Shown: positions 2,707 through 64,000, numbered from the stretch's first letter. The stretch: DNA of 64,000 bases from Dehalococcoidia bacterium (GCA_965249065.1 CBDFLG010000001.1:421084-485083), one strand, 5' to 3'. The notes: generated by a model from the sequence alone, not told the origin. Numbers and translations are program-made.

Positions 2707-2777
2707 CGGCTGCCATAACGGCAGGCCCACCGGGAACTCGCTGGCATAATTCACTCAACCGGGCTGGAGGACAAGCT

Positions 2778-3281
2778 ATGGGCGAAATGTTGCAGCAGGG
2801 GGGCCGATTTCCCCAATTGGAGTTGAAGTTGCTGGACGGCGGGACGCTGACTCTGCCCGGCGATGCGCCGAGCCGCTACACCGCGCTGCTGTTCTACCGG
2901 GGGCACTGGTGACCCTACTGCCAGCGGCAGTTGGCCGCGTATGAGGCAGCCAAACCGGAATTAGACGCGCTGGGCGTGACCGTCATAGCCGTCAGCACCG
3001 ACAACGAGGAGCAGGCGCAGGAAGTGAAGGGCCGCGGCTTGAGCTTCCCGGTCGCTTACGGCGCTAACAAGGCCGACGCCGACACCATCGGCGCCTGGTG
3101 GTCCGACGATCGCGGCGGCTTCGTCCAGCCTGCCGAGTTCCTGCTGGGACGCGGCGGCGTGGTGCTGGGGGCCATGTACGCCTCCGGCCCGGTGGGACGT
3201 ATGGCGTCCGACGAAGTCATCTATTCCATAACGTCCCGCGAGAACCGGCGGCGCCAAGAAGAAGGCGAAACGGCAGGATAG
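2778..3281 (+). CDS. AhpC/TSA-type peroxiredoxin-like thioredoxin-fold protein, probable selenoprotein (UGA-Sec at 2910-2912)
   Basis: ATG 2778 has GGAGG 7 nt upstream. The tail of ORF 2277..2912 and ORF 2931..3281 share a frame and are separated only by TGA. Read-through gives ALLFYRGHW-U-PYCQRQLAAYEAAKPELDALGVTVIAVSTDN, the FYRGxWCPxC motif with U in place of the first Cys. Confidence 0.7.
2918..2949 (+). promoter_or_regulatory. Candidate bacterial SECIS hairpin downstream of UGA 2910-2912
   Basis: Lower stem CUGCC (2918-2922) pairs with GGCAG (2945-2949). Upper stem GCGGC (2924-2928) pairs with GCCGC (2934-2938). Apical loop AGUUG contains GU about 17-21 nt after the UGA. Folded by eye only. 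Confidence 0.4.
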
Positions 3282-3350: not shown

Positions 3351-4184
3351 ATGAACGAAGCCAATCAGCAACTCGTAGACATGATGGAACACGTCTGGCG
3401 CTCCATCGCCACCCTCTGCAACGGCCTCACCGAAGCCCAGTGGAAGACGCCCACCGACTGCCCCGGCTGGTCGGTGCAGGACCAGATCTCGCATCTGGCA
3501 GGCTCCGAGACGGGGATCCTGGGCGACCCCGACCCCGGCCACACGCCCGCCGACCTCTCGCACACCCGCAGCGAGCAGGGACGGCACAACGAGATCGTGG
3601 TGGACTTCCGCCGCCCGTGGCCCGGCCAGCAGGTGCTTTCCGACTTCCGCGCCAAGACCGCCCGCCGGATGGAAAGCCTGCGCGCGATGTCCGACGACGA
3701 CTTTGCCGCCGAGATGCAGACCCCGGTCGGCCCCGGCAGCGTCTCCGAGTTCCTCAGCATCCGCATCATGGACGCCTGGATTCACGAGCAGGACATCCGC
3801 CGCGCCCTGAACCGCCCCGGCGAGATGGAGGGGGCGGTCGCCGCCCACGCGCTGGGCCGCGTCATCCGCGCCATGCCCTTCGTCGCCGCCCGCCGCGCCC
3901 AGGCCCCCGACGGCACGACCGTGCTGTTCGACATCTCCGGCCCTGCCGGACGCCTCATGCCCATCGGCGTCACCGTAACCTCCGACGGAAGCCGACGCGG
4001 CCGCGAGCTGGAGCAGGCCCCCGGCAGCCCCACCGTCCGCATCACCCTCGACGCCGAGACCTTCGGCTGCCTCGGCTGCGGCCGCTGGGACCCCGACGAA
4101 GTCCTGCGGTCGGGCCAGGTGTCCATCGAGGGCGACACCACCCTCGGCGAGTCCATCGTCCGCCAAATGAACATAATGCCCTGA
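3351..4184 (+). CDS. DinB-fold / maleylpyruvate-isomerase-family (mycothiol-dependent enzyme type) protein with C-terminal SCP2-like domain
   Basis: 277-aa ORF. The N-terminus HVWRSIATLCNGLTEAQWKTPTDCPGWSVQDQISHL is typical of the TIGR03083-type DinB domain. The C-terminal LRSGQVSIEGDTTLGESIV is sterol-carrier-like. Confidence 0.75.
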   Translation: MNEANQQLVDMMEHVWRSIATLCNGLTEAQWKTPTDCPGWSVQDQISHLAGSETGILGDPDPGHTPADLSHTRSEQGRHNEIVVDFRRPWPGQQVLSDFRAKTARRMESLRAMSDDDFAAEMQTPVGPGSVSEFLSIRIMDAWIHEQDIRRALNRPGEMEGAVAAHALGRVIRAMPFVAARRAQAPDGTTVLFDISGPAGRLMPIGVTVTSDGSRRGRELEQAPGSPTVRITLDAETFGCLGCGRWDPDEVLRSGQVSIEGDTTLGESIVRQMNIMP

Positions 4185-5246: not shown

Positions 5247-5624
5247 CTAGTGGCGGTGGCCCGTTGAGTGCATTATCAGGTTGCCCTTGGCGACTTCGGT
5301 CATCACCTCCACCGCCTCGGCCAGGGTCTCGTCGTCCACTCCGAGATGCTTCACGGCATCCAGATGGAAGCGCACTCAAACGCCGCAATTGTTCATGGCG
5401 GACACGATGTAGGCAATGAGCTTCTTGGTCTTCAGGTCCAGCCTTCCGGCAACCATGGTCTGCTGGTAGTAAGCCCAGTAGGATTCCAGGTGGGCCGGGT
5501 TGTGGGCGATTAGCTGGAAGGTCTGCGGCACAAATTCCCAACCCATGCTCGCCTTGATTTCTTCGTAAATTTCCTTCACCCTGCCGGTGGCTTGCTGTTC
5601 GGTTACCAGCTCTACTCTGGCCAA
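5247..5624 (-). CDS. Carboxymuconolactone decarboxylase / AhpD-like protein, probable selenoprotein (UGA-Sec at 5376-5378)
   Basis: TTG start at 5624 with AGGAG 8 nt upstream. The track ORF 5376..5624 stops at TGA. The same frame continues 42 codons to TAG at 5247-5249. Read-through gives SAMNNC-GV-U-VRFHLDAVKHLGVDDETL, matching the AhpD/CMD CxxCxxxH motif with U at the second Cys. Confidence 0.7.
5344..5371 (-). promoter_or_regulatory. Candidate SECIS region downstream of UGA 5376-5378
   Basis: Two alternative hairpins seen by eye: GCUUC/GAAGC (5 to 28 nt after the UGA), or GGAUG-CCGUGAAG-CAUCU (15 to 32 nt after the UGA, apical loop with GU). Weak. Confidence 0.3.
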
Positions 5625-27442: not shown

Positions 27443-28480
27443 CTACGCACAGCCGCGCGCCCCAACATTTACGGAACTGCGAGCATCCCCAACAGCCCGC
27501 CAGTCTATATTAGCGGCCCGCAACTGCCTCTCAATGACATCCCACGCCGCCGGCGAATTATCCATCCCAACAAACCGGCGGCCCAGACGGGCGGCTTCCA
27601 GCAGCGTTCCGCCGCTGCCCGCGTAGCAGTCCAGCACCGTGTCGCCCGGCTCCGATGATGTAAGTATGATGCGCTCCAGCATCGCCGCGTTCTTCTGGGT
27701 GGGGTAGCTGGGGCGCTGTGGGTCCTTGTAGACCCACACGTCCTGCGGCAGCTTGCCTGGGGACTGGTCGGCGTAGATTATCTTGCGCGGGTTGCCGGTG
27801 CTGCTCCAGGCGATACGGCCGCTGGCGTCCAGTTCCTCCAGTTTGTCCGGCGGGTATCTCCAGTGGCGGCCCGCCGGCGGAGGCATCCCACGCCAGAGTC
27901 CGCCCGTAGGTCCGTTGCGCGTTGTACCGGGAGCGTGGAGGGGCGTTGTGGCGTAGCGGCGGCCTGCATCGTCCACCAGCGGATAGCGGGATTCCACGTC
28001 AGCTCCGGTTAGCGGCTCTTCCTGCGGATGCCACTTGATGCGGTTGGGCGACACGGAATAGAAGAGGATAGTGTCCTTGATGTTGCCGTAGGAGTGGCGG
28101 GCGAAGTTCTTGGGATTGCACTTTATGCGGGTGATGCTGTTGCGGAAGTTGCGCGGGCCAAATACTTCGTCCAGTAGCAGGCGGACGTGATGCTCCATCT
28201 TTACGTCTATGTGAACATAGACCGAGCCGTCGTCGGCCATAATCCGGTGGATGGCCTCAAACCGCAGCCGCAGTTGCTCTAGGTAGTCGCCGCCCCGTAA
28301 GGTGTCGGCGTAGGCCAACTCGCCCGAGGCGCTAATGGCGTTGGCGCGATGGGCGTCAATCAGAAACTCGTTGTTGGTGGCGAAGGGCGGGTCAATGTAC
28401 AGTAGGTCAACCTTGATGCCCAACCCGGCAAGGCGAACCAGCCCGTCCAGGTTGTCCCCGGCGTGAAACAGGTGCTCCAT
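27443..28480 (-). CDS. Site-specific DNA methyltransferase, beta-class (N6-adenine or N4-cytosine), no adjacent nuclease
   Basis: 345 aa: motif IV LLYIDPPFATN near the N-terminus and motif I VLDCYAGSGGTLLEAARLGRRFVGMD near the C-terminus. Confidence 0.85.
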   Translation of the reverse strand: MEHLFHAGDNLDGLVRLAGLGIKVDLLYIDPPFATNNEFLIDAHRANAISASGELAYADTLRGGDYLEQLRLRFEAIHRIMADDGSVYVHIDVKMEHHVRLLLDEVFGPRNFRNSITRIKCNPKNFARHSYGNIKDTILFYSVSPNRIKWHPQEEPLTGADVESRYPLVDDAGRRYATTPLHAPGTTRNGPTGGLWRGMPPPAGRHWRYPPDKLEELDASGRIAWSSTGNPRKIIYADQSPGKLPQDVWVYKDPQRPSYPTQKNAAMLERIILTSSEPGDTVLDCYAGSGGTLLEAARLGRRFVGMDNSPAAWDVIERQLRAANIDWRAVGDARSSVNVGARGCA

Positions 28481-29203: not shown

Positions 29204-30781
29204 ATGAAGTACGACCATATCATCATCGGCGGCGGCACGGCCGGGTGCATCGTTGCGGCGCGGCTGTCGGAGGACCCGGCGCGCTCAGTGCTGCTGCTGG
29301 AGGCCGGCCCCGACTTTCCCGACTTCGCGCAACTGCCCGATATGCTCAAGCTGGGCTGGGGAACGGTGAACCTGGAGGCCCGCGCCGCCGGTGCGCCCTA
29401 CAACTGGTCCTTCACCGGCACGGCCACGCCGGAGCAGGATCCCATGCCCGTGCCCCGCGGCAAGGTGCTGGGCGGCTCCAGCGCCATCAACGGCCAGACC
29501 TTCATACGCGGCGCGCCCGAGGACTTCGACACCTGGGCGTCTTGGGGCAACGACGGCTGGTCCTACCTGGACTGCCTGCCCTACTTCCGCAAACTGGAGA
29601 ATGACGCCGACTTTCACGACGATTTCCACGGCACCGACGGCCCGGTGCCCGTCCGACATCATCAGCGCGAGACCTGGCCGGCCGTGCAGGAGGCCTTTTT
29701 CCAGGCTGTAACCGCCGCTGGATACCCCTACCATCCCGACGTGAACCACCCAGAGGCCACTGGCATCAGTCAGCGCGCCGAGAACAACATTGACGGCGTG
29801 CGCATGAGCATGGCCTTGGCCTACATAGACTTGGTCCGGCACCGGCTGAACCTCACCATCCGCCCCAACGCCCAGGCCCACCGTGTGGTGCTGGCTCCTC
29901 CTGCTGTCCCCCCCGCCGGGGGGGAACTACAAGGGGGGGCGCAGCGCGCCGTCGGTGTAGAAGTGGGAAGCGGCGGAGAGAGTTTCGTGGTAGAAGGCGG
30001 CGAGGTCATCCTGTGCGCCGGGGCGGTGGCCTCACCGCAACTGCTGATGCTGTCGGGCCTGGGCGCCGCCGCGCAGTTGGAGGAGCTGGGCATTCCCGTG
30101 GCTGTGGATCTGCCCGGCGTGGGCCGGAATATGCGCGACCACCCCAACGTGTCGGTGCGCTTCCGGGTCAAGGATGACGTTCCCGAAGACCCCAACGCCA
30201 TGCGGGCCCTGCGCCTGCGCTACACCGCCACGGGTTCCGGCACGCCCCACGACATGATTCTTTCCCCTGCATCTCTCAACACGGTAGTCCGGGACAACAA
30301 TCCGGCCCACACCATCAATTGCGGGCTGTATCTGGCAGCGGGGCAGGGCGAGCTGTGGCTGACCTCCGCCGACCCCAACGCGCCGCCCAGCATGAACTAT
30401 CACTATCTGGAAGATGCGTGGGATGTGGAGCGGCTGCGCGAGGCAGTGCGGCTGTGCGTAAGTCTGCTGCAAGGCGACGCCTACGCCCCATACATCGAGG
30501 AAATCATCTCGCCCACGCCCGCCGACCTAGAAACCAACGAGGCGCTCGACGGCTGGCTGCGCCGCAACGTCAGCACCTCATACCACATCTCCGGCACCTG
30601 CAAGATGGGGCCGCCCGGCGATTCGATGGCCGTCGTAGACCGGCAGTTGCGAGTCCGGGGCGTCTCCAACCTCCGCGTGGCCGACGCCTCCATAATGCCC
30701 GACGTAGTCCGGGCCAACACCAACGTAACCACCATGATGATAGCCGAGCGAGTCACCGACTTCATCAAGGCTGGGAATTAA
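29204..30781 (+). CDS. GMC-family oxidoreductase (choline/alcohol dehydrogenase-like flavoprotein)
   Basis: MKYDHIIIGGGTAGCIVAARLSED (FAD Rossmann)...GGSSAINGQ...SYHISGTCKMG. ATG 29204 lies 7 nt after AGGGAG. Confidence 0.85.
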   Translation: MKYDHIIIGGGTAGCIVAARLSEDPARSVLLLEAGPDFPDFAQLPDMLKLGWGTVNLEARAAGAPYNWSFTGTATPEQDPMPVPRGKVLGGSSAINGQTFIRGAPEDFDTWASWGNDGWSYLDCLPYFRKLENDADFHDDFHGTDGPVPVRHHQRETWPAVQEAFFQAVTAAGYPYHPDVNHPEATGISQRAENNIDGVRMSMALAYIDLVRHRLNLTIRPNAQAHRVVLAPPAVPPAGGELQGGAQRAVGVEVGSGGESFVVEGGEVILCAGAVASPQLLMLSGLGAAAQLEELGIPVAVDLPGVGRNMRDHPNVSVRFRVKDDVPEDPNAMRALRLRYTATGSGTPHDMILSPASLNTVVRDNNPAHTINCGLYLAAGQGELWLTSADPNAPPSMNYHYLEDAWDVERLREAVRLCVSLLQGDAYAPYIEEIISPTPADLETNEALDGWLRRNVSTSYHISGTCKMGPPGDSMAVVDRQLRVRGVSNLRVADASIMPDVVRANTNVTTMMIAERVTDFIKAGN

Positions 30782-30800: not shown

Positions 30801-32345
30801 CTACAAGATAAGCATCTTGTCCTGAGTGTCGCCCACCAGCGAACGAGGGTCAACCGGTGGTAATGCAGGCCGCTCATCCCGTTGCAGCATTTCCTGTACG
30901 CTGATGGCCTGCATTACCGGATACTCGACAGTGCCCTTTTCTCGCGTAGTGATGGTTACGCGGCCCTGCTGGGCTGCGAATACACGCAGTGATTCGGGAG
31001 GTTGATAAAGGCTAATCATGAGGGACATAGGGGCGTGCAGCCCCCGGTTCTGCATTGCTGTTTGCGTACCCAGCAGGCGGTCCATATCAGGGCGGCCTAC
31101 CGATGACGGGTTGCGATGCATTTTTACTTGTATGGGAATAGTCACGCCTTCGTTGCGTTCGGTGTCCATTGCGCCGAAATAGCGGGCATCAACGCCGCCG
31201 TCGCCCGTTTTGCGCTCATTGGGCACGGCGTTGAGCAGGCCTGCAACCTTGTCCTCGGCCCAAGCCCATCCAGGGGTGCCGTCTTCCGCCTCATCCCGTG
31301 ACATCAGAGAGCGTCGCTCAAATTCTGTCCAATTGAAATCGTCCAAATCCAGCCCGTAGACCACCGGTACGGCGGCGGCTCCCCGAGATTCCAGCCGCTG
31401 CTGCATCACCCGCACGGCGATGCCGCTGATGTCTATGCCCAGATACTTGCGCCCCAGCGATGCCGCAGCATCCGCCGCCGTTCCGCAGCCGCAGAACGGG
31501 TCCAAAACTAGGTCACCGGGGTTGGACGAGGCCTTGATGATGCGCTCCAACAACGCCAGCGGCTTTTGCGTGGGGTAGCCAAGCCGCTCTTTAGCAATGG
31601 GAGCTATGATACCGATATCCCAAACATCTGACATAGGCGCGCCTTTGGATTCTTTGTCGGTCTGACTTGGCTTACGTCGTCCAGAAGAAAAATCTGCGAC
31701 TTGCTGTTTAGTTCCCCACGTTTTCTTTGTAGATGGGGCTAGGTCTTCATAAAGTTGATTAAATGTCCCTGGTTCTCCTCCACTCTTGCAATACATTAAG
31801 ATTACATCATGCATCCGCTGGAATCTGCGCTGCTTCGCAGGCCATCGTCGATAACGCCATATTACTTCGTTTTGGAAATTCGATGGAGAGAAAACTTCGT
31901 CCATCAATATCCGCAGATAAGCGTCGGCGTGAGGGTCGCAGTGCAGATAGATACTGCCAGTAGGTTTCAGGACGCGACGCATTTCGATTAGGCGGCGGCC
32001 CATATAAACGCAGTAGGCCGCCATTTTGGACTGTTCGCCAGTTTGCAGCCGAATACCGCGCAGGCAGTCATACAGGCTACCGTGTGGCAGACGCTGAAAG
32101 GTGTTTTCCGTCTCCACCGTCCAGCGCCAGACATCGCGGAGCTGCTGCGCCACCGTCCCTTTATCCCCAAAGGCGGCGACGTAGAACTGGTTGGAGTTGA
32201 AGGGAGGGTCGAGATAAATCAGGTCGACGCATTCGTCGGGCAGTTCGCGCAGGACGTCCACATTGTCCCCGCAGACGAGAGCGTTGCCAGTCAGGTATTT
32301 GTGGCTAAAACTCGGGGGGGTAGCGGAGCGTCGGCGGGGCGGCAT
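30801..32345 (-). CDS. Beta-class DNA methyltransferase fused to a C-terminal Mrr-like (PD-(D/E)XK) restriction-endonuclease domain
   Basis: Motif IV DLIYLDPPFNSN and motif I VLDPFCGCGTAADAAASLGRKYLGIDIS, then about 190 aa with GDGGVDARYFG...TIPIQVKMH (D...QxK). ATG 32345 lies 6 nt after GAGGG. The track start is TTG 32351. Confidence 0.75.
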   Translation of the reverse strand: MPPRRRSATPPSFSHKYLTGNALVCGDNVDVLRELPDECVDLIYLDPPFNSNQFYVAAFGDKGTVAQQLRDVWRWTVETENTFQRLPHGSLYDCLRGIRLQTGEQSKMAAYCVYMGRRLIEMRRVLKPTGSIYLHCDPHADAYLRILMDEVFSPSNFQNEVIWRYRRWPAKQRRFQRMHDVILMYCKSGGEPGTFNQLYEDLAPSTKKTWGTKQQVADFSSGRRKPSQTDKESKGAPMSDVWDIGIIAPIAKERLGYPTQKPLALLERIIKASSNPGDLVLDPFCGCGTAADAAASLGRKYLGIDISGIAVRVMQQRLESRGAAAVPVVYGLDLDDFNWTEFERRSLMSRDEAEDGTPGWAWAEDKVAGLLNAVPNERKTGDGGVDARYFGAMDTERNEGVTIPIQVKMHRNPSSVGRPDMDRLLGTQTAMQNRGLHAPMSLMISLYQPPESLRVFAAQQGRVTITTREKGTVEYPVMQAISVQEMLQRDERPALPPVDPRSLVGDTQDKMLIL

Positions 32346-32375
32346 TGTCAACCCTCATCGGTGAATGATGGCGCG

Positions 32376-51848: not shown

Positions 51849-52574
51849 TTACAGGCTTTGCTGACGGCGAAGTTGGTCTTCCAGTTGCCGGATGCGTTCC
51901 TGTGCGGCGGCGCGCTCGGCCTGGGACTGGCGCAGGGCTTCCTCCAGTTCCGACGGGTTCAGCAGGTATTGCTGATTCACCCGCTCCCAAAAGCGCAGTT
52001 GCCGGTCAACCCAGCACAGCGACAGCCCCAGGGTCTCGCTGTATCCCCAGATCACCCCGTCCGGTTCGGTGAACAACTCAATGGAGCGGTAGACGCCGCC
52101 CTCCGTGAGCCGGTCACCGGCCAGCGCCGCGTCGTATTGACGGCCCCCGGTGTGGTCGAAGCGCCAGTACTCGGTTACTCCCAGTTCCGCATAGATGTCA
52201 CGCTTGACGGTATAGTCCCGGCGGGCGGTGTGCGACGACGCCACTTCCATCACCAGTTCCGGCGGTTTGCCCGCTTCGCTAATCACGTAGCCGTTGGTAT
52301 CCACGAGGTCGGCGGCGATGACGTCAAAAGACACGAGCATATCGGGGTAAGGACAGGAGGGCAGGTCGCTGCGCTGGCGGCAAAGATAGCCTCTCCCGGC
52401 GATGAACGTGGTGGCGTCGTCGCGCATGGCGTCCAGGTGGCGGGCCAGGGTGTTGGCCACGGCAGGGAGGTCGAAATGGAGGTATTCTTGCATATCGCTT
52501 TTCTTCGGCGGGTTGGGCAGCGGCGGCAGCCGGATGGCGCTGCCCGGGAACCCGGGACGGGGCTGGGCTGTCAT
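51849..52574 (-). CDS. Uma2-family endonuclease, tandem copy 2
   Basis: Identical to copy 1 except for A/V and Q/L substitutions and the absence of an 11-aa repeat in the tail. The track ORF extends to 52610. ATG 52574 corresponds to the copy 1 start. Confidence 0.85.
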   Translation of the reverse strand: MTAQPRPGFPGSAIRLPPLPNPPKKSDMQEYLHFDLPAVANTLARHLDAMRDDATTFIAGRGYLCRQRSDLPSCPYPDMLVSFDVIAADLVDTNGYVISEAGKPPELVMEVASSHTARRDYTVKRDIYAELGVTEYWRFDHTGGRQYDAALAGDRLTEGGVYRSIELFTEPDGVIWGYSETLGLSLCWVDRQLRFWERVNQQYLLNPSELEEALRQSQAERAAAQERIRQLEDQLRRQQSL

Positions 52575-52696
52575 GGCAAACCTCGCGTCGGCAGGTGCGA
52601 TAATCGGCATTATACCGGCATTGTACCCCGGACGGGTGAACCGCGCGCCCGGAGACTTTCGATTTCCCGACGGACTTCCGGGAGGCCGGAAATGAA

Positions 52697-59385: not shown

Positions 59386-59461
59386 TGGTCGGGGTGAGTG
59401 GATTCGAACCACCGGCCTCTACGTCCCGAACGTAGCGCGCTAGCCACTGCGCTACACCCCG
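59386..59461 (-). tRNA. tRNA-Pro (anticodon CGG), CCA encoded
   Basis: Own fold of the 76-nt sequence: acceptor CGGGGTG/CACCCCG, D arm GCGC-AGTGGCTA-GCGC, anticodon arm CTACG-TTCGGGA-CGTAG, T arm GGTGG-TTCGAAT-CCACT, discriminator A, then CCA. Confidence 0.95.
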
Positions 59462-59546: not shown

Positions 59547-60137
59547 CTAGCTGTCCAGCATCTCCTGCGCCTGCTCGATGAGGGTTTCTTCGGTCAGGGC
59601 GCCGGTCCACTTGTTGTGGATGGAGCCGTCGGCATTGATGAAGACGGTGGTGGGCAGGGCCAGGACTCTGTACTTGGGGAGCACATCCGAGTCCTCGGTG
59701 TAGCCCGCCGGGAAGCTGACGCCAAGTTCGGCCAGCAGTTCCCGGCCCTGCTCCGGAGTTCCTTGTTTGGTGAACTGGCCCAAATCCACACCCAGCACCA
59801 GTATCTCGTCGCGGTACTCGCCGTAAAATTTCTGGAACTCCGGCAGCTCGGCGCGGCAGGGCGGACATTCCGCGGCCCAGAAGTTGAGCACCACCGGCTT
59901 TTCGCCTACCAGCGACGCCATCGCCACCTGTTCACCGCCCAATATGTCCTGCCCCTGCGACACCATGATGGGGAAGTCGGGCGCCGTTTCCTTGTCGCTG
60001 CCGACTCCATTTCCGCTGCCGGAATCGCCGCCGACTCCATTTCCGTTGCCGGAATCGCCGCCGCACGCCACCAGCAGCGCCAACGCCAGTAGCAACGCCG
60101 CCGCTATCATTATCCCCGTCCGGTTTTTGCAAATCAT
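59547..60137 (-). CDS. TlpA/ResA-type thiol-disulfide oxidoreductase lipoprotein
   Basis: 196 aa: signal LLLALALLVACGG, Gly/Asp/Ser/Asn repeat linker, and thioredoxin motif VVLNFWAAECPPCRAELPEF. Confidence 0.85.
   Translation of the reverse strand: MICKNRTGIMIAAALLLALALLVACGGDSGNGNGVGGDSGSGNGVGSDKETAPDFPIMVSQGQDILGGEQVAMASLVGEKPVVLNFWAAECPPCRAELPEFQKFYGEYRDEILVLGVDLGQFTKQGTPEQGRELLAELGVSFPAGYTEDSDVLPKYRVLALPTTVFINADGSIHNKWTGALTEETLIEQAQEMLDS
60001..60060 (-). repeat. 2 x 30-bp tandem repeat in the TlpA linker
   Basis: CCGACTCCATTTCCGCTGCCGGAATCGCCG and CCGACTCCATTTCCGTTGCCGGAATCGCCG (29/30). They encode GDSG(N/S)GNGVG. Confidence 0.85.
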
Positions 60138-60399: not shown

Positions 60400-63300
60400 T
60401 TATCCCGCGGCGGCGTCTGCGGCCAGTTGACGCATATTGTCCATAAAGACTTGCAGCCGCTCCAGCGTCCGGGTGAGGCGGGTGAGCCATTGGTCGCCCA
60501 GAGGGCGGAGGGGCATCTGGATTTGCGCGTTGCCTACTTGGGCCGCCGGGCCTAGGGCGCGCTGCAAGGGGCTTTTAGCGCCGCCCACTGGGTTCCTCAA
60601 TGATATTACGATGGACTCGGTGGTGCGGATTACCGACTCGGCCCCGGCGGCCCCGGCGATGGCGCGGATTTCGGCCACTTTCAGCAGGCTTTCCACCTCG
60701 TCCGGGACGGGGCCGAAACGGTCGCGCAGCTCTTCGCGTATCTCCGGGAGTTCACGGCGCTGGGTCAGTTTCGCCAGCCGCTGATAGACCGACAGGCGTG
60801 TCGGCAGATGCCCGATGTAGTCGTCCGGGATGCCGGCGTTCAGTGGCAGTTCAATGCGGGGCGGCTCTTCCGTGCCCGGCTCCGGGCCGGACAGGGCCGA
60901 CTGCCCCCCTTCCCGCTCCAGTTCCCGCACCGCTTCATGGAGCAGTTGGGTGTAGAGGTCGAGGCCGACCTCCTGAATGTGGCCGCTCTGGTCGGCCCCT
61001 AGGATGTTGCCCGCGCCGCGAATCTCTAGGTCGCGCATGGCGATGCGGAACCCGGCGCCGAGTTCCGACGCCTCTAGGATCGCCTGCAAACGCATTTCGG
61101 CGGCCTCGGTTATGCGCCGCCCCCGGGGGGCCAGCAGGTAGGCATAGGCGCGATGCTGGCCGCGTCCGACCCGGCCCCGTAGCTGGTAGAGCTGCGCTAG
61201 GCCGAAGCGGTCGGCCCGCTCCACGATTAGCGTGTTGACATTGGGCATATCGAGGCCCGATTCGATGATGGTGGTGCAGACCAGAACGTCGGCCTGGCCG
61301 TTGGCGAAGTCCATCATCACGTCTTCCAGATCCGACTCCGCCATCTGGCCGTGTCCCACCACGACGCGGGCCTGCGGGACCAGCTCGCGGATGTCCCCGG
61401 CAGTCTGATGGATACTCCTGACCCGGTTGTGGAGATAAAAGACCTGCCCGCCGCGCTCCATTTCTCTCAGAATGGCTTCCTTGACCACGTCTTCCGAGTA
61501 TTCGGAGACGAAGGTCTTGACCGGCAGCCGCTCCTCGGGGGCCGATGACATCGACGACAGGTCGCGCAGACCGGACATCGCCATGTTCAGCGTTCGCGGG
61601 ATGGGCGTTGCGCTCAGCGTCAACACGTCCACTTGGCGGCGAAGCTGCTTCAGCCGCTCCTTGTGGCTTACGCCAAAACGCTGCTCCTCGTCCACCACGG
61701 CCAGCCCCAGGTTCTTGAACTGCACGTCCTTTTGGAGCAGGCGGTGGGTACCAATTACGATGTCCACGTCTCCGGCCTTCAACCCCTCGATGACCTGCTG
61801 CTGCTCCTTGGGCGTGCGGAAGCGGCTGAGCACCTCGACGCGCACCGGAAAGGGGCTAAGCCGTTCGGTAAAGGTGGCATAGTGTTGCTGGGCCAGCACG
61901 GTGGTCGGCACCAGCAGGCCCACCTGCATACCGTCGCTGACTGTCTTGAAGGCCGCCCGGAGCGCCACCTCGGTCTTGCCATAGCCAACGTCCCCGCAGA
62001 TGAGCCGGTCCATTGGCTGTGTCCGCTCCATGTCGGCCTTGACGTCCATGATGGCGTTGGCTTGGTCGGGGGTCTCGACGTAGGGGAAGGAGTCCTCCAG
62101 TTCCTGTTGCCACGCGGTATCCGGGCTGAATTCGTGGCCTTGGGCAATCTGCCGGGCTGCGTTGAGACGGATGAGTTCCTGGGCCATTTCCCGCGCCGCG
62201 CCCTTCACCCGCTGCTTGATGCGGTTCCAGTCGGCTGCGCCCAGGCGGGTCAGGGCCGGCTCGTGTTCCTGGGCGCCCACGTAGGCGCTGACCCGGTCCA
62301 GATGGTCGGTCGGCACATAGAGCCGGTCGCTGTCGGCGTATTCGAGAACCAGATATTCCCGGTCTTCGCCGCCGTCGCCCATGCGCGTGGTACCGGCGAA
62401 CCGGGCTACGCCGTGGTCTATGTGAACAACGAACACTCCCGGCTCCAGATCGGCCAGCGATATGTCCGGCCCGCGTTCGGCGCGGCGAGGACGGCGCTGC
62501 CGGCGCTCCTTGGCTGTGCCGAACAGCTCGGTGTCGGTTAGCAATTCCAGCCGGGCCACTCCGTTCCGCCTTGCCGCCCGGCCCTTGCCATTCCGGCCCG
62601 GCTTACCCGAAGTCCCTCCTTCGGCCGGGAGTTCGATGGTCCAGCCGTTGCGCAGAGAGCCGGAAACGATGCAAACCTCGTCCGGAGCGGGGGTGTCCTC
62701 CAGCGCGTCAAGCACCGATGCGCTAATCCCCTGCTGCTCTAGGATTTCGGCGAGCCGGCGGGCGTGTTGAGTCACGGCCACCAGCGCCGCGCCCCTGCCC
62801 TGCCTCTGCCGCAGGTCCTCCGAAAGTTGCTCCAGCCTCCCGTAGTAAGGAGTGGCGGGCAGGAAAACGTGGTCGTCCTCTTCGCCGACCCAGGTTTGCA
62901 GGTCCACTCGCCGGAGGCTGCCGAGGCGAGCAGAGAACTCCTCCCAGCTCATGTAGGGCGAGGGGAAGTTGCCCGGCAGTTCGCCCCGCTCCTCCCGGGC
63001 CGCCCGCATCCGCCCGAAGCGTTCTTCCAGTTCCGACGCCTCGGCTTCCACGCGACCGCCCCGCTCAAGCAATACGGTTGCGTTTGGCCCCAAGTATTCC
63101 AGCAGTGGCGTGCGATTCACCAGCCCGCTGTAGAAGGAGAGGGTTTCCTGGTTGCTTTCCAAGCCGCCAGGGTCGGTCAGCGTTTGCAGGTCTTCTTCGA
63201 TGCGCTCTTGGACGGCGGGGCTGCAACGGGAGAAGTCCATCGCACCGGCCCTGGCGGCCAGCGCTGGCGCGTCCGCCTGCCCCTGTAATTGCTCGCGGGC

Positions 63301-64000
63301 GGGAATGGGCCGCACTTCGTCTGCCGCTCCCACCGACCGCTGGGTCAGCGGATCGAAGCGCCGGATGGTATCTATTTCGTCGTCGAACAGTTCGATGCGC
63401 AGCGGCAGTTCGCAGTTGGGCGGAAAGATGTCGAGAATTCCCCCGCGGTGGCTGAACGAGCCGGGCGAGTCCACCACCGGCTCGTGGCGGTAGCCCAGGT
63501 CCACCCACTGCGACAGTACGGCGTCCAGCCGCACCCGGTCGCCCACCCGCCAGACGCAAGGAGCCGCCCATTCCGGGTTGCCCGGAGGGTGGGCGGCAGA
63601 GAGCAGCCGCCCGGCCATCAACTCCGGCGGCGCGGTGTAGAGCAGCGCTGAGCCGATGGAGCAGACCACCAGGGGCGGATGGCAATGTTCCCCGCCGGAC
63701 TCCGCAATTTCGTGCTCTTTGCCGCCCTCTTCGTCGCAGACTTGACGGGCCGAGGCCAGGGCAGCAAGGGCGGCCAGGCGTTGATTGCCGGTGTTGGCGT
63801 CGACGGCCAGCCGCTCGAAAGGCAGCACTTCCGGCTCCGGCAGCAGATGGACCGCCGCATCTTCGCCCAGCCAACTCAGCATCTGGTCGTGCAGGCGGCG
63901 GGCGTCCTCCGGGCGCGGGGCGATTACCAGCAGCGGCCCTGGCCGGCGCCTGACCAGCGAGGCGATGAACGCCGGCCTGGCCCCTTGCCGCACCGTGGCC
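60400..64000 (-). CDS. mfd: Transcription-repair coupling factor Mfd, N-terminus beyond the window
   Basis: ORF longer than 1197 aa and still open at base 64000. CarD-like domain (VVHIDHGVARF), helicase motifs (GDVGYGKTEVALRAAF, VVDEEQRFGV, LSATPIPRT) and a TRCF C-terminal domain. Confidence 0.95.
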   Translation of the reverse strand, partial: ATVRQGARPAFIASLVRRRPGPLLVIAPRPEDARRLHDQMLSWLGEDAAVHLLPEPEVLPFERLAVDANTGNQRLAALAALASARQVCDEEGGKEHEIAESGGEHCHPPLVVCSIGSALLYTAPPELMAGRLLSAAHPPGNPEWAAPCVWRVGDRVRLDAVLSQWVDLGYRHEPVVDSPGSFSHRGGILDIFPPNCELPLRIELFDDEIDTIRRFDPLTQRSVGAADEVRPIPAREQLQGQADAPALAARAGAMDFSRCSPAVQERIEEDLQTLTDPGGLESNQETLSFYSGLVNRTPLLEYLGPNATVLLERGGRVEAEASELEERFGRMRAAREERGELPGNFPSPYMSWEEFSARLGSLRRVDLQTWVGEEDDHVFLPATPYYGRLEQLSEDLRQRQGRGAALVAVTQHARRLAEILEQQGISASVLDALEDTPAPDEVCIVSGSLRNGWTIELPAEGGTSGKPGRNGKGRAARRNGVARLELLTDTELFGTAKERRQRRPRRAERGPDISLADLEPGVFVVHIDHGVARFAGTTRMGDGGEDREYLVLEYADSDRLYVPTDHLDRVSAYVGAQEHEPALTRLGAADWNRIKQRVKGAAREMAQELIRLNAARQIAQGHEFSPDTAWQQELEDSFPYVETPDQANAIMDVKADMERTQPMDRLICGDVGYGKTEVALRAAFKTVSDGMQVGLLVPTTVLAQQHYATFTERLSPFPVRVEVLSRFRTPKEQQQVIEGLKAGDVDIVIGTHRLLQKDVQFKNLGLAVVDEEQRFGVSHKERLKQLRRQVDVLTLSATPIPRTLNMAMSGLRDLSSMSSAPEERLPVKTFVSEYSEDVVKEAILREMERGGQVFYLHNRVRSIHQTAGDIRELVPQARVVVGHGQMAESDLEDVMMDFANGQADVLVCTTIIESGLDMPNVNTLIVERADRFGLAQLYQLRGRVGRGQHRAYAYLLAPRGRRITEAAEMRLQAILEASELGAGFRIAMRDLEIRGAGNILGADQSGHIQEVGLDLYTQLLHEAVRELEREGGQSALSGPEPGTEEPPRIELPLNAGIPDDYIGHLPTRLSVYQRLAKLTQRRELPEIREELRDRFGPVPDEVESLLKVAEIRAIAGAAGAESVIRTTESIVISLRNPVGGAKSPLQRALGPAAQVGNAQIQMPLRPLGDQWLTRLTRTLERLQVFMDNMRQLAADAAAG

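Follow-up and report, generated by a model that had tools for sequence, protein, structure and literature searches.

A probable selenoprotein gene of the UxxC peroxiredoxin-like class, with a conserved stem-loop behind its in-frame UGA, in a Dehalococcoidia genome

A 64,000-nucleotide stretch of DNA from a Dehalococcoidia bacterium (GCA_965249065.1 CBDFLG010000001.1:421084-485083), referred to below as the window, carries a redoxin gene on its plus strand (2778-3281) that contains an in-frame TGA codon at 2910-2912. An earlier reading of the sequence, here called the original prediction, had proposed a probable selenoprotein in which UGA takes the place of the first redox cysteine. Our analysis indicates that 2778-3281 is very probably a single functional gene encoding a cytoplasmic redoxin with a peroxiredoxin (Prx)-like fold and the active site Sec45-Pro-Tyr-Cys48, into which selenocysteine (Sec) would be inserted at the UGA by means of a stem-loop. 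The reading frame is intact on both sides of the TGA, the codon is conserved and pairs with Cys in more distant homologs, the hairpin behind it is constrained at the RNA level, and the protein fold extends across the position of the TGA.

Results

The gene comprises 167 codons, including the Sec codon, and is terminated by TAG at 3279-3281. Its translation contains a single internal stop, TGA 2910-2912, in the context ...RYTALLFYRGHW*PYCQRQLAAYEAAK..., where it sits within the motif FYRGHW-TGA-PYC. Numbered on the read-through product, the motif residues are R41-G-H-W-U45-P-Y-C48, with the partner (resolving) Cys48 of the UxxC motif encoded by TGC at 2919-2921. A Shine-Dalgarno-like GGAGG (2766-2770, plus strand) lies 7 nucleotides (nt) 5' of the start codon ATG 2778. 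The open reading frames (ORFs) 2277-2912 and 2931-3281 have a common frame. The start codon, the GGAGG and the separation of these two ORFs by nothing other than the TGA had all been pointed out in the original prediction; the first two can be read directly in the sequence, and the third agrees with both the ORF list and the translation. Inspection of the sequence revealed no ribosome-binding site before TTG 2931, with which the downstream ORF begins. Neither a sigma-70 promoter nor an intrinsic terminator match was found around the redoxin gene, and the translated read-through protein has no N-terminal hydrophobic segment.

Homologs were sought among 5.8 billion proteins. Matches at 70-99% identity were nearly all 113-116 residues long, corresponding to the C-terminal fragment only, and matches at 50-68% identity were full-length proteins of 164-177 residues. 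Looking up the exact sequence of the 116-residue fragment P0001 yielded no record. The original prediction had named alignment with Cys-containing homologs as a check; in this alignment, about 22 full-length homologs carry Cys exactly at the TGA column (xWCPYC). The corresponding codon is TGT in P0007 and L084 and TGC in two loci from Thermomicrobiales (L043 and L044), and P0010 also has Cys; about 20 of the Cys homologs are roughly 50% identical to the window protein.

A scan of one genome per species yielded 44 clear homologs (L001-L044). Loci L001-L042 derive mostly from Dehalococcoidia, SAR202 and other Chloroflexota metagenome-assembled genomes (MAGs), joined by one gammaproteobacterial and two alphaproteobacterial MAGs. 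These 42 orthologs are full-length, come from species-level genomes and show 44-94% protein identity to the window gene. In every one of them an in-frame stop occurs at the identical position, and it is always TGA, so that together with the window gene the codon taken as Sec45 is TGA in 43 of 43 genes. The proposal of a selenoprotein was matched by retention of the TGA in 42 other genomes. None of the 42 orthologs lacks the second Cys of UxxC. Across 30 ungapped comparisons with the window gene, the ratio of nonsynonymous to synonymous change (pN/pS) was 0.15 before the TGA (44 codons) and 0.22 after it. Such low values on both sides of the TGA imply that the frame is translated throughout and that selection maintains both parts.

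Four ortholog entries from JGI show Trp at the Sec column. For P0002 (locus L082), one of the four, the DNA reads TGA, and the Trp of this entry hence stems from the gene caller. On a 755-bp metagenome scaffold, L083:71-574 has TCA (Ser) at the Sec codon, with the hairpin CGGCAGUUGGCCG intact; this codon reflects a very recent mutation or else an error in the reads. The gammaproteobacterial, 'Candidatus Azophilus' and Rhodospirillaceae MAGs (L039, L040 and L042) hold the TGA form with a compensated hairpin (in L042, GUCGUC-AGGUU-GACGAC), a distribution that could reflect horizontal transfer or an ancient origin.

Immediately downstream of the TGA, the original prediction had drawn a two-tier hairpin with the apical loop AGUUG and had assigned it to the range of a bacterial selenocysteine insertion sequence (SECIS). 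Its lower stem, 2918-2922/2945-2949, and its upper stem, 2924-2928/2934-2938, pair exactly as drawn, and the full structure (2918-2949, plus strand) is the minimum-energy fold of that segment at -14.0 kcal/mol. The core alone (2924-2938, plus strand), which consists of the 5-bp upper stem and the loop at 2929-2933, folds at -8.2 kcal/mol. Between the TGA and the stem lie 11 nt, and between the TGA and the loop 16 nt.

It is comparison with other genomes, not single-sequence folding, that gives this hairpin its significance. We aligned the 48 nt from the TGA onward for 40 distinct sequences (alignment A2). RNAalifold returned exactly one helix, formed by columns 15-19 and 25-29, which is the upper stem 2924-2928/2934-2938. 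Of the cells in this stem, 98% are paired, and compensatory changes are found: pair 15/29 is G-C in 29 sequences, U-A in 7 and C-G in 2, and pair 18/26 occurs as G-C, G-U and U-A. The covariation score for the whole two-tier structure, 0.160, was above that of any of the 500 column shuffles or slid controls. In the lower stem, 84.5% of cells are paired; homologs of greater divergence have a contiguous extension of the upper stem in its place. The upper stem alone is well supported by comparison, and the lower stem is weaker; to this extent the hairpin proposed as a SECIS held up in its upper part but less so in its lower one. A different hairpin, 2917-2922/2926-2931, was considered as the conserved element and rejected: it is 93% paired, but it shows no compensatory change and does not rise above shuffles.

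Constraint is also evident at synonymous sites. The normalised synonymous-codon entropy was 0.10 at codons 49-53 (2922-2936) versus 0.67 for the rest of the gene, which makes these codons the lowest five-codon window of the gene (Mann-Whitney p = 1e-4). Ala53 is encoded by GCC in 40 of 40 genes, and the next Ala uses four different codons. In the Cys homolog P0007 (TGT), R-Q-L-A-A is encoded as AGG-CAG-CTC-GCG-GCG, with which the stem is impossible; the stem is likewise absent from L043 and L044 (TGC). Since P0007 has the same RQLAA peptide without the hairpin, the constraint acts on RNA.

Published criteria for a bacterial SECIS (bSECIS) demand a loop of 3-9 nt, an upper stem of 4-16 bp, G in the first two loop positions, a spacing of 16-37 nt and a minimum free energy of -7.5 kcal/mol or lower (PMC13188914). 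The window element passes every one of them, with a loop of 5 nt, a stem of 5 bp, and G at loop position 2 followed by U; its spacing of 16 nt is the shortest that the model allows, and, as a further difference from the model, its lower stem varies among homologs. Like elements of the Escherichia coli fdhF type and the bSECIS consensus, it is a stem-loop in the coding sequence, close behind the UGA, that has a small G-U loop and an accepted spacing, although it bears no sequence similarity to the fdhF SECIS.

At the protein level, the read-through product, with Cys put at the stop, matched the Pfam families AhpC-TSA (1.5e-18) and Redoxin (4.5e-14). The domain match covers residues 7-130, i.e., both sides of the TGA, and the AhpC-TSA score of 67.3 bits exceeds the Pfam cut-off of 26. 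For the fold we relied on the Cys homolog P0010, which is 60% identical to the window protein. Its AlphaFold2 (AF2) model has a predicted local distance difference test (pLDDT) score of 90.6 and forms one compact domain spanning the TGA position, with strands on either side of the break point. When the model was compared with the Protein Data Bank by Foldseek, Bcp4, Bcp1, AhpC2 and PrxQ were the top matches (template modeling [TM] scores of 0.78-0.85), which identifies the fold as that of a Prx. Among solved structures, those closest in sequence belong to two WCxxC thiol-disulfide oxidoreductases, ResA and StoA; the match is weak (E about 1e-4) and places their W-C-x-x-C over W-U-P-Y-C.

The original prediction had called the product a peroxiredoxin-like redoxin of the AhpC/TSA type. 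Domain and fold agree with this description, but the protein is not a classical Prx: of the classical motif PxxxTxxC, Pro and Thr are absent, and Sec stands in the Thr position. In a BLASTP alignment with what we take to be the E. coli BCP sequence, FYRGHW-U-PYC falls over FYPKAM-T-PGC; this presumably puts Sec45 at the conserved Thr of PxxxTxxC and Cys48 at the peroxidatic Cys. The NCBIfam model for PrxU (NF040737) scored 22.9 bits against a cut-off of 270 and the SelL-related model (NF040769) scored 25.3 bits against a cut-off of 120, and both assignments were dropped because these scores are far below the cut-offs.

"Prx-like thiol:disulfide oxidoreductase" (PF00578, UxxC) is a described selenoprotein class, and true Sec-peroxiredoxins are TxxU (PMC2398784, PMC13188914). 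With UxxC at the CxxC position (W-U-P-Y-C) and its second Cys invariant among the orthologs, the window redoxin appears by its sequence to be a UxxC Prx-like thiol:disulfide oxidoreductase selenoprotein and not a classical peroxiredoxin. With this class, known as 'Prx-like 1' in the Sargasso Sea and Global Ocean Sampling (GOS) selenoproteomes, it shares the AhpC-TSA domain, a UxxC motif with Sec first, abundant Cys homologs and a SECIS straight after the UGA; the window gene is placed there by domain and motif, the published representative being WP_010940744.1. Sec peroxiredoxins (TxxU; PrxU of Eubacterium acidaminophilum, NF040737) belong to the same fold superfamily and likewise have Sec in the active-site turn. 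Their Sec, however, replaces the peroxidatic Cys, whereas that of the window protein lies three residues earlier and the peroxidatic-equivalent residue stays Cys. Proteins of the ResA/StoA/TlpA type share the WCxxC position and include the closest solved structures by sequence, but they are membrane-anchored and extracytoplasmic, unlike the window protein with its nonhydrophobic N terminus, the predicted fold of which is nearer to Bcp/PrxQ.

Elsewhere in the window TGA serves as an ordinary stop. It terminates 5 of the 31 long coding ORFs (TAA, 15; TAG, 11), including the adjacent gene at 3351-4184, and 37 of 88 such ORFs in related loci, where it is the commonest stop. This bears out the earlier claim that TGA is not globally reassigned. 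Only 2 of 33 genes examined (32 of them Pfam-supported) contain an in-frame TGA, and a scan for TGA codons with coding signal on both sides left only two credible sites, in the redoxin gene and in a CMD/AhpD-like gene. Candidates at 30032(-) and 28882(+) were dismissed, as they are antisense to real genes. TGA is the least-used stop in the window despite a G+C content of 62%, in what is a small sample.

The machinery for Sec synthesis and insertion was searched for with four Pfam batches covering ~39 window ORFs, with Rfam and with ARAGORN; the search was extended by ~6 kb past the right end of the window, which maps to contig ctg362357_77x_l (4,304,876 bp) of European Nucleotide Archive entry ERZ25766727. 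The sole tRNA gene that ARAGORN detected in the window is tRNA-Pro, and among the 44 loci it detected no tRNA-Sec. For a species to be listed in BSepDB, two or more of SelA, SelB and SelD must have been detected, and the database's top-10 table of selenoprotein-rich bacteria includes Dehalococcoidia bacterium UBA1141 with 49 selenoprotein genes and Dehalococcoidia bacterium 10f4566d-ab44-49ae-b774-fc9f760c6436 with 46 (PMC13326102). These two are the genomes of L037 and L035, respectively, and both bear the TGA form of the redoxin. By analogy with such related genomes, the genome studied here can be expected to encode Sec machinery.

The second credible TGA belongs to a candidate selenoprotein gene on the minus strand (5247-5624; Pfam CMD, 6.9e-14). 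It reads ...IVSAMNNCGV-TGA-VRFHLDAVKHLG..., with the TGA at 5376-5378, and the read-through C-G-V-U-V-R-F-H corresponds to the motif C-x-x-U-x-x-x-H. ORF callers give pieces of 82 and 42 residues. Among the 87 CMD homolog clusters, the majority have 82 residues, as does a protein cut at that TGA; the four sequences read (P0121, P0124, P0128 and P0198) end in ...MNNCGV, as does the translated DNA of L079-L081. A SECIS-like hairpin (5341-5363, minus strand) pairs GAUGC (5360-5356) with GCAUC (5349-5345) around the loop CGUGAA (5355-5350), 20 nt after the UGA. The DNA of the three genomes L079-L081 shows conservation of the TGA, the downstream frame and the hairpin. A word-indexed search retrieved no full-length Cys homolog, and the Sec/Cys pairing is made by family motif. 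"AhpD-like 2 (pfam02627, CxxU)" is a known selenoprotein family (PMC2398784), with which the window gene shares the CMD domain and CxxU followed by xxxH. We consider it, on these grounds, a probable second selenoprotein gene.

One GOS read carries adjacent Prx-like 1 and AhpD-like 2 selenoprotein genes (PMC2398784). The two window genes, in contrast, are 2.4 kb apart on opposite strands and do not form an operon, and in other genomes the CMD/AhpD-like gene was not found within 3 kb of the redoxin gene and is not syntenic with it. In a sister Dehalococcoidia genome, a UGSC-family (PF24696) gene at L079:5694-6251(-) was called as two ORFs with a TGA in ...VTGIGD-U-GGCSSG...; as judged from this motif, it would be a third selenoprotein family in the clade.

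The redoxin gene is followed on the same strand by a gene of the MDMPI_N/DinB_2 family (3351-4184, plus strand; Pfam MDMPI_N, 1.5e-29) with an ordinary TGA stop. Of 42 loci, 35 have a gene of this family directly downstream, the most divergent Dehalococcoidia among them, and an MBL-fold gene and an Smr gene are each found upstream in 25 loci. Whereas the neighbor of Prx-like 1 on the one GOS read is AhpD-like 2, the conserved partner of the window redoxin is the MDMPI/DinB-family gene. The spacer between the redoxin and the downstream gene measures about 35 to 110 nt across loci, and hairpins are frequent in it. In the window, the intergenic segment 3293-3324 holds a near-perfect 14-bp palindrome, UUUUAGGGGCGCAC-AGCC-GUGCGCCCCUAAAA, followed by a second hairpin, and the two jointly reach -33 kcal/mol. 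The palindrome lacks a T-run, and relatives do not conserve its sequence: their spacers bear other hairpins.

Other features of the window were recorded in passing. A second AhpC-TSA/thioredoxin-like gene, without an in-frame stop, is present at 59547-60137(-), adjoining mfd (60400-63993) and tRNA-Pro (59386-59461). Several tandem genes of the Uma2 family (putative restriction endonuclease-like) were seen amid TRAP-transporter genes at 51849-52610(-) and at L086:17580-19898. Two N6/N4 DNA methylase genes occupy 27443-28480 and 30801-32351.

Discussion

If the UGA is decoded as Sec, its decoding would follow the established bacterial route. SelB would bind the stem-loop 2924-2938, with its apical loop AGUUG, as the ribosome reaches the UGA, and the complex SelB-GTP-Sec-tRNA(Sec) would then place Sec45 at 2910-2912 without termination. 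A catalytic cycle can be proposed from the chemistry of UxxC and CxxC motifs in oxidoreductases of the thioredoxin (Trx) fold. The exposed Sec45 selenolate would attack an oxidised substrate, which may be a disulfide or a sulfenic acid, or perhaps a peroxide; Cys48 would resolve the intermediate to form a selenenylsulfide, and a thioredoxin-type reductant would recycle the latter. By analogy with these oxidoreductases, the enzyme is most likely a thiol/selenol-disulfide oxidoreductase.

Several points weigh against Sec insertion at this UGA. The presence of selenium in the protein is a prediction from sequence. Folding of the region, a check suggested by the original prediction, came out unevenly: alone, the 61 nt of 2905-2965 do not fold beyond shuffles (z = -0.9) and adopt another minimum-energy structure, although the segment 2918-2949 gives the energy reported above. 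In the longer context, the hairpin 2917-2922/2926-2931 is slightly more stable (-16.3 versus -15.1 kcal/mol). No Rfam family matched the hairpin, and Rfam gave neither a SECIS family nor tRNA-Sec at gathering thresholds over the whole window or at E <= 10 over 2850-3000; bacterial SECIS elements have little sequence in common (PMC13188914), which makes the missing SECIS match uninformative. Finally, selA, selB, selD and tRNA-Sec were not found in the 64-kb window or within ~6 kb past its right end.

An ordinary Cys-redoxin gene might have been inactivated, or misread in sequencing or assembly, by a change from TGC or TGT to TGA. Public gene callers, which give only a 116-residue C-terminal fragment, would agree with a pseudogene of this kind, and the TCA of L083 demonstrates that single-base variants do occur at this codon. 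Independent assemblies nevertheless have TGA at the same codon throughout, both flanks are under strong purifying selection, and a constrained hairpin lies just downstream; we attach a negligible probability to this explanation. The locus might alternatively yield two products, an N-terminal peptide of 44 residues and, from TTG 2931, a separate protein of 116 residues, as the ORF callers read it. This is scarcely more credible, since in the Cys-homolog model both sides contribute strands to a single compact domain of the Trx/Prx fold, the cut would split the redox motif, TTG 2931 is not preceded by a ribosome-binding site, and the Cys homologs are single chains. Taken together, the conserved TGA and the selection on both flanks leave no room for a pseudogene, a sequencing error or a pair of separate products.

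More attention is due to the possibility that UGA is recoded without selenium, either by a near-cognate or suppressor tRNA (Trp, Cys or Arg) stimulated by the hairpin or because UGA is a sense codon in this lineage. Such a scheme would fit the failure to see Sec machinery in the window, the Trp that the JGI pipeline placed at this site in four orthologs, and the rank of TGA as the least-used stop (5 of 31 ORFs). Yet TGA ends many genes in the window and its relatives, and it occurs in frame only at two redox-Cys positions. The hairpin, moreover, bears the G-U loop signature and the spacing of a SelB-dependent SECIS, the residue found in homologs is the Cys of CxxC, a classical Sec/Cys exchange, and sister genomes are catalogued as Sec users. 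We regard recoding of this type as very unlikely. The stem-loop itself might be no SECIS but a pause site, an mRNA stability or regulatory element, or a product of codon bias, with the true SECIS, if there is one, elsewhere. The greater stability of the hairpin 2917-2931 in the window sequence and the lack of a match to an Rfam SECIS model could be cited in its favor. That alternative hairpin is without covariation, however, while the constraint falls exactly in the SECIS distance range and the stem is confined to TGA-containing genes, being lost in Cys homologs with the same peptide; a role other than that of a SECIS is accordingly given still less weight than recoding without selenium. A single gene with Sec45 inserted by way of the stem-loop remains the explanation that we favor.

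The conserved association with the MDMPI/DinB gene raises the question of a shared function. Co-transcription of the two genes is possible. DinB/MDMPI proteins are thiol-dependent enzymes, and a functional link to the redoxin is for this reason plausible but speculative. One could imagine that the Sec-redoxin and a DinB-type thiol S-transferase/isomerase form a two-component, selenium-dependent system for the detoxification of low-molecular-weight thiols, specific to selenoprotein-rich marine Dehalococcoidia; we put this forward as a conjecture that is more likely wrong than right by a wide measure. The occurrence of the redoxin in L039, L040 and L042 would be consistent with horizontal spread of a redoxin/DinB pair system.

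Bacterial selenoprotein genes with an in-frame UGA are routinely split by gene callers. The original prediction anticipated fragments from automated annotation, and the public gene calls indeed consist of truncated pieces: public protein sets contain more than 100 clusters of 113-116-residue AhpC-TSA fragments, and the CMD family is mostly represented by 82-residue entries. Misannotation of both families in these sets is systematic.

Read correctly, the locus would regain its active site, and two selenoproteins would be added to a 4.3-Mb Dehalococcoidia genome. UxxC Prx-like and CxxU AhpD-like selenoproteins have been known since the Sargasso Sea and GOS analyses, and sister genomes have already been catalogued as selenoprotein-rich; the understanding of Sec decoding and of the prokaryotic selenoproteome is unchanged. 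In the comparative set, nature itself supplies the control for a clean case of a minimal bacterial SECIS. Its stem has 5 bp and its loop 5 nt, it lies 11 nt from the UGA, and it is kept where the codon is UGA but has been erased, through synonymous changes, in a Cys form with the same peptide. The value of the finding lies mainly in this example and in the repair of annotation.

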